Shown: positions 4,276 through 61,441 of the stretch, in pieces
Numbering within the stretch: position 1 is the first letter of the stretch
Layout of the letters: every line of letters begins with the position of its first letter
Assembly: GCA_963803145.1 (NCBI GenBank)
Contig: CAWDLW010000011.1
Span: 20,861-84,860 of the forward strand
Length of the DNA stretch: 64,000 nucleotides
Direction of reading: 5' to 3'
Origin: Methanotrichaceae archaeon
GTDB lineage: Archaea; Halobacteriota; Methanosarcinia; Methanotrichales; Methanotrichaceae
The notes under the pieces: generated by a model
The model's input: the letters and a program-made list of their open reading frames with translations, nothing else
Database searches by the model: none
Told to the model about the DNA's origin: nothing
Program-made: the position numbers and the translations under genes

Positions 4276-4514
4276 CCCATATTTCGCAGTATTGATTTTC
4301 AAAATCTATAATTTTCATGAAACTTAGGTCAAATTAATATTTACAATTTGCTGGTCAAATCGCTATTTCACACAAAAAAGAGGTGCCAAGATAACTGGCT
4401 CAAATAGTTTCTATTTTTCAAGTTGTTTACTTAAATTCGTTATTAGGATTCAATGTGCAAATTTAAATTAGCTTGAAAATTATTTTTGCTTGAAATGAAA
4501 GTGCGGAATGTGGG
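4276..4514. mobile_element. MITE, 239 bp, copy 1 (IS1634-like ends, inferred)
   Basis: Ends CCCATATTTCGCAGT...AGTGCGGAATGTGGG. 6-bp target duplication TTTTAT at 4270-4275 and 4515-4520. Near-identical to 50360-50598. Confidence 0.9.
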
Positions 4515-4684: not shown

Positions 4685-4870
4685 TCAACATTGTCCACAA
4701 TATGAGGAGATCCCCAAAGCCTCAGCCTTCAGCTTTCTTGCCTTCTTCAGTGCCTCAGACTGACTCATCTTTCCACAACTCCCTAAATATCTAGTGATAA
4801 TCCTATTGCCTCCTGCCAGGAGCAAACCCACTTGAGATAATTTCGATCGCCTTTCTTACCCTCTATCCAG
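4685..4870 (-). pseudogene. Frameshifted remnant of a small basic protein (WxCSW...YLGSC.KMSQ.EAL.KARK.KAEALG family)
   Basis: Two frames give KKGDRNYLKWVCSWQE and GNRIITRYLGSCGKMSQSEALKKARKLKAEALGI. Confidence 0.45.
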
Positions 4871-5096
4871 CAATCTTCTCATCAATCGCTGATATCTCAA
4901 AGATTCGAATTTTGTAGCCGTTACACTATTCGCGATAACCACACGATCGATCATATCATTTACCGCACTTTCAGGCTTGAAATCATTGGCGGTAACTATG
5001 CCGCAGCTCCTATTCACGCCTATGGTAAAATAAAGTGCATAATAAATAGGAACATAGATCTTTAAACCAGTAAAGCCAGTAATTAAGGGGATATTA

Positions 5097-5606
5097 TTGA
5101 AGATAGAATCAATATTGTGTATAGTGCTAGTATCGCTAATGTTCCCTACTGCTATGGCGGCAATAGGTTCTACAAGTGATACCACGCCGCCGAGCGTTAT
5201 TAGTTTCAATTTTGGACCGAGGTTGGTAGATATATATAGCGGATCTCAGAATATCACATTCACAGTAAGATTGAAAGATGACTTAAGTGGTATTTCTGAC
5301 GGAGAACTAGATGGAAATCCAGTAATCCCATCACAGGCACGTTTCTATAGTGAATCGGGCGATAATTATCTTACTGTTGATTTTCGGTCACCGTCTAATG
5401 ATCCCAAGTTTAACAATTCCAACCTTGTTTCGGGGAATAAGTTAGACGGTACTTATATTAGTAACATGGTTGTGCCAAGAGATGCTGAGCCTGGCAATTG
5501 GACACTCGAATACCTCTCGGTAGTTGATGAGGCGAACAACAAGAGGGAATACGACACATACAAAATGTTTACGATGGGATTTCCAATCGAATTTTGGGTT
5601 GTATAA
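5097..5606 (+). CDS. Secreted hypothetical protein, Ig-like domain
   Basis: Signal peptide, DTTPP motif and beta-rich sequence. Confidence 0.6.
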   Translation: MKIESILCIVLVSLMFPTAMAAIGSTSDTTPPSVISFNFGPRLVDIYSGSQNITFTVRLKDDLSGISDGELDGNPVIPSQARFYSESGDNYLTVDFRSPSNDPKFNNSNLVSGNKLDGTYISNMVVPRDAEPGNWTLEYLSVVDEANNKREYDTYKMFTMGFPIEFWVV

Positions 5607-5994
5607 GGAAATCGCATATAGCGGTTTCCTTTGTTTTGGATAATATTGTAAACTCGATATGCTTTGACTACGAACTATGAACCTTTTGAAGTTGTATGTA
5701 GTAATCCTGTATGTTATGTATAGCAAATTGTACAACTTGCAGACCTCTGCAAAATCGGCCTAACGTCTATTCTACCTAGCCAATCATTCACATGCTTTAT
5801 GGAATAAATTTTCGACAATTGCCCGAATACGATTTTTCGGCAGCGACTAAAACAAAAATGCGCTGTATAATCCGGAGCGCACACTCATGCCTTCACAGGT
5901 CGGATAGATGTTTATAAAAATGTGATACGGCTTCGAAGATGCCAAAAATTGAAGGGACGGGCTTACAGGTTACGCGTACCCATGGGAGGTAGGG

Positions 5995-6327
5995 TCAGCC
6001 TGTATACCCCAAATCCTTGGCCTTGGCATAGGCTTCATTAGCTTCTTCGGTGCGGCCTAATGTATTGAGGATCATGGCTTTGCCGCTCCAGGCGTATGTA
6101 TATTGGGGATCAATCTTCATGGCCTGATCAAAAGCTTGGTCATCAAAGAACAGAAAAGCGGTAGTTCCTCTTGATGTCTGCCAGCCTGTTGGATATTCAA
6201 CTGTAAAGAATGGTCCATCCTAAATGGAATATTCGATCGCTTTCGCAATGGAAATAGGCGTTATATATAAAGCCAAAATCGAACATATACATAACGCCAA
6301 AGCTAAAATCCTCTTTCTGCGTTCCAC
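5995..6327 (-). pseudogene. Degenerate secreted TPR protein with an internal stop and a probable deletion
   Basis: Signal peptide, in-frame TAG at 6220-6222, and C-terminal TPR DQAMKIDPQYTYAWSGKAMILNTLGRTEEANEAYAKAKDLGYTG. Confidence 0.6.
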
Positions 6328-6474
6328 GAATTATCCCTCTGGGTTTTAGGTATCACCCTGGCAATTCACTTTCCAAAGATAAATACTTTCAAGCCTTTTG
6401 CAGTTACCAGTAATCAGATATGAACAAGAATGGATAGAAAATTAGAGAATGAAACAATAGTACTGTGAGGTTTT

Positions 6475-6807
6475 AGGCGAGCCAAACGCAGATTCACAGC
6501 GCCCTCCTCAGAGGGATCAACCACGGTAGTGGCGATCTTGAGACTCGCCTCGCACCTTCACACAGGCAATGCGAGACAGCACTGGTATCTGGCACAGCGC
6601 CCTTATTACAGGGACTCATTCATCAAGGATGAGGAGCCTGCACCCGCCTCGCCTGCACACATTCGATTCTCGCCGCGTTTATATACGAACTGAACGATGT
6701 ATGCCTTAACTCGCTTTCGCCGAAAACTTCGCTGTTAAGCAAGGCGCTCCATTGAGGGTGGACATACGGCCCTCGGAACTTAATCGGCTACAGCCCTGTA
6801 TCGCGGC
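6475..6807 (-). ncRNA. Candidate structured ncRNA of unknown class, copy A (~333 nt)
   Basis: No ORF. GC-rich with nested inverted repeats, colinear motif homology to 60255-60728, and a TATA box 26 nt upstream. Confidence 0.6.
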
Positions 6808-6832
6808 AAACTAACTATATTATCGTTATAGA

Positions 6833-6848
6833 TATTTATACTTTTTGG
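6833..6848 (-). promoter_or_regulatory. BRE/TATA promoter of ncRNA copy A
   Basis: CCAAAAAG-TATAAATA on the minus strand, 26 nt before the first helix. Confidence 0.6.
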
Positions 6849-6909
6849 TAGAGTTTTAAATTTCCGCTTATAATGGAAATCAGAAATTAAGCAGCCACCC
6901 ATGTGAAAG

Positions 6910-7117
6910 ATTTCTCCATAATAGTACCGAAGAAGTCAGTTGAAGGATCTGAAGTCTAGAGCGAAGGTTCCGCAGGTTTGCAAAGGCTCAAGCCAGAAAA
7001 GCGAAGTTGGACAAGTGGATCTGGATAAGCTTGAGCGTGATATCGAGGAAGAAGGCAATCGGGTTGCGCGAGAGAAGTACAAGATTTTTGCTGGACACTA
7101 ATGTCTTTAGACTATAA
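6910..7117 (+). pseudogene. VapBC-type toxin-antitoxin remnant
   Basis: Antitoxin-like tail LDKLERDIEEEGNRVAREKYKIFAGH* overlaps a PIN start FLLDTNVF that stops almost immediately. Confidence 0.5.
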
Positions 7118-7187
7118 TCGCTTAAATTTTCAGATAACACATTTATAGCAAATGCCATCATTTTCTAAAAGTACGAAGTGATAATAA

Positions 7188-8063
7188 ATGAGTATAAAGA
7201 AAAATACAGAAAAGAGCATATTCAGCCTTGTCGCAGTGACGATCGCAGCCTCTCTATTTTTTTGCACCATCGCCGCCTCAGGCCAGGCTGTACCTAACGG
7301 CAATGCATCGGCTGCAAATAATTCTGCCGCCGATATGACCTTCAAGCTCCTTCAGATCCAGGCGGATGTGCAGGGGAGCCTGAACGATTTGGATGCAGAT
7401 GTGGCAAATGCATCTCAGAATCTCTCGGCAACGGGCCTTGAGGGCGACGCAGCTCGTGGAGTTCTGAGCAAGCTGATGGAAACTAACACAAACCTGGTCG
7501 AAGCAGTGACGGTCAGCAAGAATGGAACGATCGCTGTGGCTGAATGCAAAGACTGCGAGGGCGGCGAAGGCGCTAACATAAGCAACCAGGAGCATATAGC
7601 CCATATTCTGAAGGATAAAACACCAGCGTTCAGCGACGAGTTCCTGCTTGTGGAAGGATATAATGGCACTGCTCTCGCATATCCAGTCTTCTCTCCGCAA
7701 GGTGAGCTATTGGGCGGCATCAGCACAATCATCAAGCCTGATAGTCTGGTAAATGCCAACGTGGCTCCAAAGCTGAACGGCACAAACTACAGCTTCTGGG
7801 TGATGCAGCTGGATGGCCTGATTGCCTACGACAGAGATTCAAGCCAGATTGGGAAATATCTATTCGAAGATCCGCTTTATAAATCATTCACAAGCCTTCT
7901 GGCCTTGGGACATACTATGGTGGCTGAGAGGTCGGGGCATGGCAACTACAGCTTCCAGGTCACTGAGGGCAATAAGACTGTAGTAACCAAGGATGTCTAC
8001 TGGACTACTGTTGGGCTTCATGGGAAGGAATGGCGGCTTGCCATCACCAGGATAATGAGCTGA
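7188..8063 (+). CDS. Secreted Cache/PDC-domain protein
   Basis: Signal peptide; AYPVFSPQGELLGGIS and WTTVGLHGKEWRL Cache-type motifs. Confidence 0.75.
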   Translation: MSIKKNTEKSIFSLVAVTIAASLFFCTIAASGQAVPNGNASAANNSAADMTFKLLQIQADVQGSLNDLDADVANASQNLSATGLEGDAARGVLSKLMETNTNLVEAVTVSKNGTIAVAECKDCEGGEGANISNQEHIAHILKDKTPAFSDEFLLVEGYNGTALAYPVFSPQGELLGGISTIIKPDSLVNANVAPKLNGTNYSFWVMQLDGLIAYDRDSSQIGKYLFEDPLYKSFTSLLALGHTMVAERSGHGNYSFQVTEGNKTVVTKDVYWTTVGLHGKEWRLAITRIMS

Positions 8064-50359: not shown

Positions 50360-50598
50360 CCCATATTCCGCAGTATTGATTTTCAAAATCTATAATTTTC
50401 ATGAAACTTAGGTCAAATTAATATTTACAATTTGCTGGTCAAATCGTTATTTCACACAAAAAAGAGGTGCCGAGATAACTGGCTGAAATAGTTTCTATTT
50501 TTCAAGTTGTTTACTTAAATTCGTTATTAGGATTCAATGTGCAAATTTAAATTAGTTTGAAAATTATTTTTGCTTGAAATGAAAGTGCGGAATGTGGG
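50360..50598. mobile_element. MITE, 239 bp, copy 2
   Basis: CCCATATTCCGCAGT...AGTGCGGAATGTGGG with a 5-bp target duplication ATCAT at 50355-50359 and 50599-50603. Confidence 0.9.
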
Positions 50599-59161: not shown

Positions 59162-59740
59162 TTTATTCCATATGTGATAGGATCTATATACCCATGTTGC
59201 TTGGGCCGCCCGGGAAAAAGCAATAAAGAATTTAATTCATGATGCCCGCCAGATCATTGATAAGATGTAGGCGCTAGCGGACTTGAGCTAACGCATTTTC
59301 TTCGCTCTGAAGAAGATCGGCCTCTAGAGCTTGACTATACAAAATCGGTAAACAACGGTCTATTGCCGCTATTTCATCGGCCGCAGCTGCAATAAGCTCC
59401 AAAAGCTCTTTGCGCCGTGATATGGCCATATCTAAATTGTTTTCCATGCTTGCCTGTAACAATGTCGCTTAAAATCGACACCGAAATATTAACCCAATCA
59501 AGGAAGCAGGGAGGATATGAACCTATCGCCCTTAAGTCCATCGAGAAGATACTTGATTTAATGATACCTCGCATAGATATGGGCATTCTCATATTGGCCA
59601 TATCATCGGTTTTATAAATTTCACGAGGTTGCTTGATGCCTTCCATCTCCTAACATTTGCGAGATGCCCACAGATCAATCTATATAGCCGAATGCTATCT
59701 TTCTCAAAGACAAAGGATGATATAGTTGGGATAACATCAG

Positions 59741-60055
59741 GTGGATATGTGTAAACGCTTTTATGGGCGTGATGGTTGTATCACTACAGAAAGAACTAAT
59801 GCAGGGATTAATGAGAGCGTATCTTTTTCAATCGATTCTTGGGTGATTTTTAACTATAGTTCTGATGTCTGGCGAGGCACCGCGAAGGCGAGACATATAA
59901 CCTCTTTGGGGAATGGAGAAGGGACCTTCCGGCGGCCTGGCGGAGAATACAATGGCAAAATAGTAATTGAAAGTGTATATTCAGATGGAGTGCATGATGC
60001 GGCTGAGATACATTTTAGCGGAAAAGGCAAACTGGGACATATCTCCCTCGTTTGA
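59741..60055 (+). CDS. Hypothetical protein
   Basis: 104-aa ORF with AGGTG RBS and a T-rich tract after the stop. Confidence 0.45.
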   Translation: MDMCKRFYGRDGCITTERTNAGINESVSFSIDSWVIFNYSSDVWRGTAKARHITSLGNGEGTFRRPGGEYNGKIVIESVYSDGVHDAAEIHFSGKGKLGHISLV

Positions 60056-60254
60056 TCTTTTTCTTCTGGACTTCGCGAATTTTCCTAGAGTTGCGTTATC
60101 TAATTAGCAGCTTGAAATTAAGGCCAAATGATTAGATTCATTGCAGCATCTCGTTTTTTCATTTTCTTTGTTGGGATCTTTCAAGTAAAGGTTCCAAATT
60201 TGCGAGGCTCTGATCATAAACTATTTGTATCCATAACAGACAAACATAGTATTT

Positions 60255-60728
60255 GCCGCGTTTTGCGCTGTTCGACGAGGGTTAATCCACCGGCAGGGCT
60301 CTCAAGGCTTGGAATTCGATAGGCGGATCTTTCGCTGATCTGCTGAGGAATGGCGAAAAGCCTGAGAGGTGCAACGCTCATGAGGGCGTTAGCATCCGGT
60401 GAATATTGGGGAGAAGCTGAGACCTACCGGTCAGAGATGTGCACGCCTTAACTGGCGTAGCATGCCTTCATTCAGCTATACCTGGAGTCCTCGTTTTGTG
60501 CGGGACGCGGCACTAGCCGAGGCAAAGGCGGGCGCAGGCTCTGCATCTTAAAGGTGTCGAGCTCCTGTAAAACGGACGCTGTGCTAAATACCAGCTAGAT
60601 ACCGGTGCTGTGCTGCCTTGGAGCCAAGGTTGAACATCGAGGCTCTGGGCGGGAAAACCGGCCTACACTACGGTGATAGGCTCCTGTTAAGGACGCTGTG
60701 GATCGGCGTTGGTCCGCCCTTGGCTCGA
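60255..60728 (+). ncRNA. Candidate structured ncRNA of unknown class, copy B (~474 nt)
   Basis: 15-bp helix 60254-60268/60498-60512 with G-U pairs, many hairpins, and colinear homology to 6475-6807. Confidence 0.6.
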
Positions 60729-60890
60729 TTACCCATCCTCTAATTATCTCAAGCATAAGGGCAAGCCAGGAGATTTCATTAGGCCCCTTTACGATAACTC
60801 TATGGTATTAAGCAATCTTTAAAAAAGTCATAGTGCCATGCTGAAGGGCGCAACCATAGCCCCTCAGTTATGACAGCATAAGCATAGACC

Positions 60891-61085
60891 TTATACTTTT
60901 TCTACTTTCTCTGCCTTGGGGCCCCTCTCGCCCTCTACTACCTCGAAGCTGACCTTGTCACCCTCATCGATAGAAACCCCAGGCTTCAAACCTGAAGCGT
61001 GAACAAAATAATCTTTTCCGTCATCGCCAGCGATGAATCCAAAACTCTTAACTCTGTTGAAAAACTTTACTGTTCCATTTACCAT
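60891..61085 (-). CDS. cspA: Cold-shock domain protein
   Basis: GTVKFFN.VKSFGFI, DYFVHAS, GERGPKA. Confidence 0.92.
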   Translation of the reverse strand: MVNGTVKFFNRVKSFGFIAGDDGKDYFVHASGLKPGVSIDEGDKVSFEVVEGERGPKAEKVEKV

Positions 61086-61441
61086 TTTAGTTCCTCAGTT
61101 AGACGTAGGTATAGCTTTTCTCTATATAACTCTATTTGTAACCTTTATTTCAACATTTCGGCAATTCGTATTTGAGCGCGAAAAAATGCTGAAAAACGAA
61201 GATCGACTATACCTCCAGACCATCACGCTTGACCTGTCAGCTTTCCAGGATGTCTAGGTATAATGCTGAGGTAGAATATCCAGATTCCTTTGCTAGCTGC
61301 TCAAAAAGTTCCCTTTGCGCAGGGAGCGGGTATATATGTGAAGATACCTACTATTATCTGGCGTGCCTTTAACCGGGCCGGAACGTCGGCCCAAAAAGTA
61401 TTAAGGCTTATTAAAAGCAAGGCACAAGGTGAGAATATTAT

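Follow-up and report, generated by a model that had tools for sequence, protein, structure and literature searches.

What kind of RNA carries the same short module twice, and what might the pair be for? The question is raised by two loci within the stretch of Methanotrichaceae DNA analysed here in full (64 kb; hereafter the window). An initial annotation described the module as a small hairpin followed by an invariant CGCTGTG, placed two instances in each of two non-coding RNA (ncRNA) copies, and proposed that they form paired protein or ligand binding sites or contacts for RNA multimerisation. All four strings are present, at 60561–60583 and 60680–60700 on the plus strand and at 6615–6593 and 6517–6495 on the minus strand. 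When both strands of the 64-kb window were searched with the descriptor CACAGCGYCCN{4,12}GGR, the reverse complement of YCC-N-GGR-CGCTGTG, exactly these four sites were recovered. Dinucleotide-preserving shuffles of the window (n = 100) contained no match (mean 0.00, maximum 0), and the repetition is thus real and not a product of chance. There are indeed two ncRNA copies with the module twice in each, and the pseudo-symmetry is genuine.

The module pairs belong to two paralogues of a structured RNA of 350–520 nt, located at ~60250–60745 on the plus strand (copy A) and ~6810–6440 on the minus strand (copy B), which align with each other across ~300 nt. An nhmmer profile built from both regions detected 10 copies in the genome that contains the window (4.13 Mb, 51 contigs, 45% G+C). 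A covariance model found 14 matches in the same genome, nine strong and full-length and five weaker or shorter; copy A was matched at 60500–60736 (198.5 bits) and copy B at 6458–6683 (160.9 bits). The model also matched 81 of 100 other Methanotrichaceae genomes, with 1–12 matches each, and the RNA was present in 13 of 16 genera including that of the window's genome. Since 19 of the 100 genomes had no match, among them all seven sampled genomes of one genus (0/7), the RNA is dispensable in part of the family. In a class-wide draw, 55 of 74 Methanotrichaceae genomes were matched by the covariance model and none of the 76 sampled genomes from four other families of the class (0/3, 0/67, 0/4 and 0/2). 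A two-module pattern scan of one genome per species for 185,579 species returned 47 loci. Forty-five of them lie in metagenome-assembled genomes that bear the label Methanothrix, Methanosaeta, Methanotrichaceae or Methanosarcinales, and nhmmer confirmed a full-length copy at each of these 45 loci. The two bacterial loci (L068 and L079) were not confirmed by nhmmer and were taken as chance matches.

No match to any of the 4227 models of Rfam 15 reached the gathering score in the whole window. Permissive searches (E ≤10 for both copies, E ≤1 for the short relatives described below) returned only scores of 10.9–28.6 bits, all below gathering, and the matches over the two whole copies (10.9–18.1 bits at E ≤10) were at chance level. 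Those that fell on the module concerned only archaeal C/D-box sRNAs, namely sR24 at 6482–6515 (12.8 bits) and sR53 (10.9 bits), with scores far under gathering (36 and 49 bits) and E-values of 6.8–8.4, and the sequence of neither copy contains a C box (RUGAUGA) and a D box (CUGA) in register. Searches of the openly searchable literature found no account of the family. The accessible text of a Methanothrix paper deals with RNA only as rRNA removal (PMC11225162), and that of a Methanosaeta paper with ncRNA only as part of the annotation pipeline (PMC10477309). The loci therefore represent an uncatalogued, lineage-restricted, multi-copy structured ncRNA of the Methanotrichaceae (Methanothrix/Methanosaeta), a family of acetate-consuming methanogens. 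The predicted transcripts and promoters of the two copies are as follows.

60218..60254, plus strand: promoter of copy A, with AAAC followed by the TATA box TATTTGTA at 60222–60229
about 60249–60252, plus strand: predicted transcription start of copy A, just before GCCGCG at 60255–60260
60250..60745, plus strand: full predicted RNA of copy A, ~490 nt, in which helix P1 closes a variable 5′ domain and the conserved 3′ domain comes next
6833..6888, minus strand: promoter of copy B, with the TATA box TATAAATA at 6840–6833
6888–6859, minus strand: inverted repeat upstream of copy B, AATTTCTG..CGGAAATT
6440..6810, minus strand: full predicted RNA of copy B, ~360 nt, of the type with a short 5′ domain; GCCGCG at 6807–6802, 3′ domain at 6683–6458, U-rich stretch after the last helix

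All full copies share the upstream promoter element AAACTACAAATATCTATAACGATTATATAGATAGTTTGCCGC, which is kept across genera (a strict regular expression fits 29 of 66 loci). The clade of copy A has the reverse complement TATTTGTA in place of the promoter octamer TACAAATA. Such an inversion is expected of a symmetric TATA box and predicts a transcription start ~25 nt downstream, before GCCGCG. A general promoter of stable RNAs was considered and rejected, because in the window's genome the motif is specific to the family and occurs essentially only ahead of its members. The inverted repeat upstream of copy B is common to the paralogues at contig C18:43k and contig C2:11k. Open reading frames overlapping the copies reach only 50–54 aa and paralogues differ by indels of many lengths, which argues that the loci are RNA genes. 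The family thus shows three features of structured ncRNA genes, namely covarying structure, an own promoter and no conserved reading frame. Neighbouring genes differ among the copies, and the duplicated units around them measure only 584–1379 nt.

Sequencing runs bearing the sequence came from sediment, freshwater, wetland, peat and soil, and four of them were examined for coverage. Metatranscriptome contigs from three studies cover 60264–60561 and 60661–60712; contigs of this kind do not show transcript ends, strand or level. They start at 60264–60276, ~10–20 nt past the predicted RNA start, and are absent from 59700–60263 and 60726–60887, while a DNA run spans the whole stretch; uncovered stretches in contigs do not equal silence, and DNA carry-over into RNA libraries is possible. 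The position of the contigs inside the predicted RNA gives a weak hint that copy A is expressed.

The structural elements of copy A are listed first, followed by those of copy B.

60255..60268, plus strand: 5′ strand of P1, GCCGCGUUUUGCGC, which pairs with GUGCGGGACGCGGC at 60498–60511
60534..60611, plus strand: four-way junction 1, containing the module instance 60561–60583
60534–60537 and 60608–60611, plus strand: closing helix of junction 1, GCAG/CUGU
60538–60562, plus strand: long hairpin P2
60563–60576, plus strand: hairpin X1, UCC/GGA, with loop UGUAAAAC
60577–60581 and 60603–60607, plus strand: hairpin Y1, CGCUG/CGGUG
60636..60729, plus strand: outer helix P3, AUCGAG at 60636–60641 with CUCGAU at 60724–60729, enclosing junction 2
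60647–60653 and 60713–60719, plus strand: closing helix of junction 2, GGGCGGG/UCCGCCC
60660..60708, plus strand: arms of junction 2, containing the module instance 60680–60700
60660–60681, plus strand: long hairpin of junction 2, with tetraloop C(UACG)G
60682–60693, plus strand: hairpin X2, UCCU/AGGA
60694–60698 and 60704–60708, plus strand: hairpin Y2, CGCUG/CGGCG, with loop UGGAU

6576..6641, minus strand: four-way junction 1, containing the module instance 6615–6593
6641–6638 and 6579–6576, minus strand: closing helix of junction 1, GCAG/CUGU
6613–6600, minus strand: hairpin X1, CCCU/AGGG, with loop GUAAUA
6599–6595 and 6584–6580, minus strand: hairpin Y1, CGCUG/CAGUG
6463..6550, minus strand: junction 2, containing the module instance 6517–6495
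6550–6544 and 6481–6475, minus strand: closing helix of junction 2, AGGCGAG/CUCGCCU
6516–6502, minus strand: hairpin X2, CCCUC/GAGGG
6501–6487, minus strand: hairpin Y2
6470–6463, minus strand: 3′ strand of P3, CCUCACAG

The conserved 3′ domain of ~225 nt consists of two four-way junctions. In each of them the closing helix meets three arms with almost no linker, namely a long hairpin, the short hairpin X (YCC/GGR) and hairpin Y. This nested structure was drawn manually, and the underlying MAFFT alignment of 29 copies was not fitted to a structure. In that alignment 92.0% of the cells were paired, compared with 39–47% when the partners were slid, and two-sided changes occurred at 20 pairs, compared with 10.6 in shuffles (0 of 500 reached the observed value). 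For 82 distinct homologues, whose alignment was fitted to the covariance model and is therefore biased towards the modelled pairs, 93.2% of the cells were paired (36.7–46.7% with partners slid) and 32 of 46 pairs showed two-sided changes (16.4 in shuffles; 0 of 500 reached it). Copy A folded with a minimum free energy (MFE) of −215.9 kcal/mol and a z-score of −4.84, and none of 100 shuffles folded as well. The unconstrained MFE fold of copy B (−135.7 kcal/mol, z-score −2.21) contained P1, both four-way junctions and P3 unaided.

Two long-range helices lie outside the junctions. P1 (12–14 bp) joins the 5′ end of the RNA with the start of the 3′ domain; it is also present in MFE folds and covaries across loci, where GUCGCG pairs with CGCGAC and CAUAC with GUAUG. 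An RNAalifold pairing of CGCGGC with GCU was dropped in favour of P1 with the 5′ end. The 5′ domain enclosed by P1 is variable yet structured, with 124–286 nt separating the RNA start from the 3′ domain. One modelled helix in the variable region was weak (69.4% of cells paired) and is probably mis-drawn. The outer helix P3 pairs the segment before junction 2 with the 3′ tail, the duplex having −6.84 kcal/mol where shuffled tails give −3.92 kcal/mol; the shuffle mean is surpassed in 81 of 82 sequences. Compensatory variants of P3 include AAUCGAA/UUCGAUU, UGUGAAG/CUUCACA and GUGAGG/CCUCAU, and copy B pairs UGUGAAGG with CCUCACA. Pairing of the 3′ tail with the variable hairpin's loop, which would form a pseudoknot, gave an equivocal signal (−6.4 vs −5.6 kcal/mol, 47 of 82 sequences) and was rejected, as the tail forms the nested P3 instead. 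A mutual-information scan for tertiary pairs yielded nothing reliable, because shifts in the alignment dominated the signal.

The consensus of junction 1 comprises the closing helix GCAG/CUGU, the long hairpin P2, hairpin X1 with the loop nGUAAAAn and hairpin Y1 (CGCUG/CAGUG). At one pair of the closing helix the 82 sequences have C-G (38), G-C (14), G-U (6), A-U (4) and others. As a partner for GCAG, the first CUG of module 1 was discarded because it leaves a G-G mismatch in four sequences where the second CUG gives G-C; against the second CUG, the closing pair is C-G in 19, G-C in 4 and U-A in 1. Junction 2 is closed by a 7-bp helix of the type GGGCGGG/CCGCCC, with two-sided changes at 7 of 7 pairs and 93.1% of cells paired, and its long hairpin ends in UNCG-type tetraloops (UACG, UUCG, UGCG). 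The arms of junction 2 (helices 10–13) had 91.7–99.3% of cells paired across the 82 sequences. The highest value belonged to Y2 (CGCUG/CRGCG, 99.3%), the loops of which vary (UGGAU, UGAAU, UGAGU, UGUAG, CGACU). Both Y hairpins are nearly invariant and the support for their pairing consists of few changes, i.e. G-U in 64, G-C in 12 and A-U in 6 sequences at one pair and 1–3 double changes at other pairs.

With this architecture at hand, the hairpin and CGCTGTG module that was first noticed proves to exist and to be incomplete, each instance being the centre of a whole four-way junction. The annotated 23-mer combines the terminal bases of the long hairpin (GAGC or AGGC) with all of hairpin X and with the heptamer CGCUGUG, in which CGCUG forms the 5′ strand of hairpin Y and UG the first two bases of the Y loop. 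The heptamer is ~90% conserved in both modules, and it is paired and not a single-stranded tail. Its high conservation with few covarying changes indicates that the sequence itself, beyond pairing, is under selection. The small X hairpins covary among the homologues, and the difference between TCC/GGA and CCC/GGG is a true compensatory change, since the closing pair of X1 is U-A in 54, C-G in 21 and of the G-U type in 6 of the 82 distinct homologues and that of X2 is U-G in 46, U-A in 20 and C-G in 15. The identity of this pair in both modules of one copy, as in A and in B, does not extend to the family. Combinations of X1 and X2 were UA/UG in 28, UA/UA in 19, CG/UG in 14, UA/CG in 6 and CG/CG in 6 of the 82 sequences, with others in the remainder. 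No concerted change of the two hairpins was found in this set; as the closing pairs vary independently, the agreement inside copy A and inside copy B is not a rule.

The two junctions share the order of their arms and have nearly identical cores (GGGu-uCC..GGa-CGCUGUG and nGGc-uCC..GGg-CGCUGUG), which suggests that they are products of an internal duplication. Four relatives of ~165 nt in the window's genome contain junction 1 only, and the persistence of such one-junction forms supports the duplication of a one-junction unit as the likely origin of the twin junctions. In addition, a natural hybrid at contig C17:87111-87236 has a new closing helix and fuses P2 and X1 with Y2, the repeated CGCUGUG being the point of fusion. 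Taken together, the loci are very probably free-standing, conserved genes whose structured RNA holds two homologous four-way junctions with cores conserved in sequence.

Several large RNAs invite comparison. OLE, ROOL, GOLLD and the raiA motif resemble the present family in size, covarying helices, multi-way junctions and restriction to single lineages, and they likewise emerged from comparative sequence analysis with a function not evident from context. None of them matched at E ≤10 over either whole copy in Rfam, and the RNA described here differs from them by its host, an archaeal methanogen, its up to 14 matches per genome with own promoters, and its twin homologous four-way junctions. Junction 2 also resembles the cloverleaf of tRNA and of the tRNA-like modules of YrlA RNAs, its closing helix measuring 7 bp and its third arm 5 bp. 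This likeness is only topological: linker lengths and loop sequences differ, and the T-loop and D-loop consensus is absent from junction 2. ARAGORN found no tRNA in the window, and no model of the tRNA clan matched the copies in Rfam at E ≤10. A repeated module, several paralogues and conserved bases in or near hairpins are traits shared with the protein-titrating RNAs CsrB/RsmZ and 6S RNA, from which the family differs by having two modules only, whole junctions in place of GGA loops and an archaeal host. Large, intricately folded ncRNAs with many covarying helices are rare, and the known ones are mostly bacterial. A large structured RNA without known function is thus a known category; the family and its architecture are new, archaeal and multi-copy. 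It provides a family-wide archaeal example of a large structured RNA with 1–14 matches per genome. Methanothrix ranks with the most important sources of biogenic methane in wetlands, rice paddies and digesters, and to our knowledge almost nothing is known about its RNA biology.

What the RNA does can be approached from the pattern of conservation. Bases in the junction cores are kept in sequence and rarely covary, which suggests direct reading of these bases by a protein or a tertiary contact and makes the cores candidate surfaces for sequence-specific recognition. If the cores are read directly, the RNA most likely works in trans and offers two equivalent binding platforms. In such a mechanism it would serve as a ribonucleoprotein scaffold or as a titrating RNA, and the variable 5′ domain could tell the paralogues apart. 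On balance we favour this reading as a whole, i.e. a structured RNA family that scaffolds or titrates a partner in trans through two equivalent sites, and regard it as reasonably probable. The modular twin-junction build, the one-junction relatives and the natural hybrid make the RNA readily amenable to mutagenesis, pull-down and cryo-EM.

A specific binding partner can be proposed from the genomic neighbourhood. Four of the seven paralogues of the chromatin protein MC1 (PF05854) in the window's genome have a gene for the RNA 210–390 nt downstream on the same strand, and on contig C18 these form a tandem MC1-RNA-MC1-RNA array. All four pairs derive from one duplicated unit of ~1.4 kb. In other genomes, from several genera, MC1 lies within 1.3 kb upstream at 6 of 67 RNA loci and shares the strand at five of these. 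As a separate observation, more MC1-RNA pairs are visible among the genome match positions. The numbers of MC1 and RNA matches per genome are correlated (Spearman 0.72, 101 genomes); within one genus the coefficient was 0.44 for 55 genomes and 0.52 for the 30 genomes that were at least 90% complete. All three values are uncorrected for relatedness, genome size and completeness, which confound them. MC1 also occurs in genomes that lack the RNA, including 7 of 7 in one genus. MC1 is reported to prefer DNA four-way junctions, with a KD of about 2.5e-8 M, and to bind bent DNA as well, and the accessible part of the same paper reports no binding of MC1 to RNA (PMC6776556). By analogy, each RNA four-way junction might bind one monomeric MC1, so that the RNA could buffer, store or redirect the protein; we consider this candidate doubtful. 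The broader wording of the same idea, that the family may be a decoy for a nucleoid protein recognising junction-shaped nucleic acid, is equally speculative. If the link were true, it would represent a new mode of regulating an archaeal nucleoid protein.

The favoured scaffold or titrating function also has to be weighed against regulation by base pairing, in which the 3′ domain would provide stability or a scaffold for a chaperone and the variable 5′ domain would target mRNAs. Many paralogues exist per genome, and their 5′ domains vary in length and sequence while the 3′ domain is conserved, as this explanation would predict. However, the 5′ domain is highly structured with conserved hairpins and offers no obvious free variable stretch, and 350–520 nt with two ornate junctions far exceed what archaeal base-pairing RNAs are generally known to need. 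We therefore regard a base-pairing regulator as improbable.

Self-assembly of the RNA into homo-oligomers, with the pseudo-symmetric junctions supplying the intermolecular contacts, would be compatible with an RNA of this size that has an ornate multi-junction fold and is internally pseudo-symmetric. ROOL, GOLLD and OLE are large bacterial RNAs cited as examples of homo-oligomers. However, these families gave no Rfam match here, nothing in the sequences bears on assembly, and a comparison of loops over the homologues revealed no conserved self-complementary loop. The multimerisation contacts suggested in the initial annotation are thus unsupported, and an RNA-only assembly seems very unlikely.

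A cis-acting leader of the thermosensor or riboswitch type, with the junctions as tandem sensors of a downstream gene, would require a constant place in 5′ untranslated regions and coherent genes. Only one orthologue group shows this arrangement: at eight places, namely the contig C35 copy and seven loci of other genomes, an Hsp20 gene follows 101–277 nt downstream on the same strand. Copy A, for its part, lies among genes for a cold-shock-domain protein, an M48 (HtpX-like) peptidase and a PspA-associated protein, a setting that would fit such a leader. In contrast, most copies have unrelated or convergent downstream genes or long gaps. No constant neighbour gene was found, the largest clusters comprising 12 of 77 places and consisting of orthologous loci with kept gene order. 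Moreover, a U-rich stretch comes after the closed helix at the end of the RNA, and tandem RNA genes exist, with two inside 1.4 kb on contig C18. A leader function is accordingly hard to credit.

Equally hard to credit is an RNA of mobile elements, either as the guide or scaffold of a transposon enzyme or as an integration site of the kind that tRNA genes provide: the copy at contig C18:43450 does have a tyrosine-recombinase gene (~193 aa) ~580 nt on its upstream side, close to an IS1-like fragment, a cluster of integrase-like genes (small tyrosine recombinases) occurs near 6 of 77 places, and one copy on an IMG/VR contig is flanked by genes for an integrase and for ParA, but Pfam scans of the larger open reading frames next to nine copies in the window's genome detected no TnpB, IscB, IS110 or Cas9 gene, the 77 places have no shared neighbour of the kind expected if the RNA guided an adjoining enzyme, the duplicated units (584–1379 nt) contain no enzyme gene, no shared larger mobile units were found around the copies, orthologous positions are kept across genera, and viral contigs gave one match with the first search pattern and none with the second. 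Cas1 and Cas4 genes were observed ~1.6 kb from a single copy only.

A probable sister family of the large RNA, which has two four-way junctions, consists of RNAs of ~165 nt that contain only one such junction; it occurs at four loci in the genome of the window:

C20:66207-66379, plus strand, one-junction RNA (L121)
C14:1452-1612, minus strand, one-junction RNA (L122)
C18:45604-45775, minus strand, one-junction RNA (L123)
C42:46581-46745, plus strand, one-junction RNA (L124)

In these RNAs, the X hairpin CCCUGUAAAAGGGG is followed by the Y hairpin AGCUGGGUUAAAAUCCAGCU, and UAUGCCUCACUUG is conserved. Their promoter, AATTATAAATAAATTAGG, is unlike that of the large RNA.

Two palindromic sequences, both possible operator sites, were found in the promoter regions of the large RNA. 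The first, an inverted repeat, lies ~20 nt 5' of the TATA box in copies with a short 5' domain. The second, ATCTATA-N7-TATAGAT, is located downstream of the TATA box and ahead of the transcription start in many large-RNA copies.

window 6859-6888, minus strand, inverted repeat AATTTCTG-N-CRGAAATT, also present in the paralogues at C18:43k and C2:11k

Convergent to copy A of the large RNA in the window is a gene for a small cold-shock-domain protein, and window 60888-61088 is likewise covered by metatranscriptome contigs.

window 60891-61085, minus strand, cold-shock-domain protein gene, 64 aa (PF00313, E 4e-19)

The ~600 nt upstream of copy A (window 59646-60250) and the ~830 nt downstream of copy B (window 5610-6440) are without convincing ORFs, and an Rfam scan for RNA genes gave no match in either stretch at the gathering score.

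One full copy of the large RNA (5911-6143, minus strand, 156 bits) was detected on an IMG/VR contig of 30.6 kb classed as viral (L125), flanked by genes for a ParA-like ATPase and a 194-aa integrase (region 4806-7501). This contig may derive from a provirus or a plasmid, or be a chromosomal fragment that was misclassified. In the genome of the window, a tyrosine-recombinase gene (193 aa) adjoins the large-RNA copy at C18:43450. A 1173-nt repeat with a weak IS1-like transposase match is found within C18:39537-42868 and, just beyond the window edge, at C11:18758-19930 (99.7% identity). Another repeat, of 159 nt, has two copies inside the window (97.5% identity):

window 4356-4514 (C11:25216-25374), 159-nt repeat
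window 50440-50598 (C11:71300-71458), 159-nt repeat

A second, small conserved element was observed 3' of several large-RNA copies in the same genome, where a regular-expression search retrieved five copies, all outside the window:

C18:129247, minus strand, small element (L013), ~50-120 nt downstream of the large RNA
C42:12073, plus strand, small element
C17:87326, plus strand, small element
C25:141273, minus strand, small element
C8:84430, plus strand, small element

Its layout comprises a promoter-like AAACTATATATCTCGGC..TATATAGTATAA, a hairpin GGCAAAAGUCG...GACUUUUGCC enclosing 25-40 variable nt, and a C/U-rich tail UCCCUCCUU. The element may be a small RNA whose tail resembles an anti-Shine-Dalgarno sequence; alternatively, the opposite strand may carry a strong ribosome-binding site. 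The Rfam search with L013 gave no match; a CRISPR-repeat hit was weak (21.2 bits, E 0.66) and under the gathering score. On contig C18, the distance between the tandem MC1-RNA array and the genes cas1 and cas4 (C18:132568-134583; 5969-7984 of the stretch L128) is ~1.3-1.6 kb, varying with the placement of the RNA 5' end.
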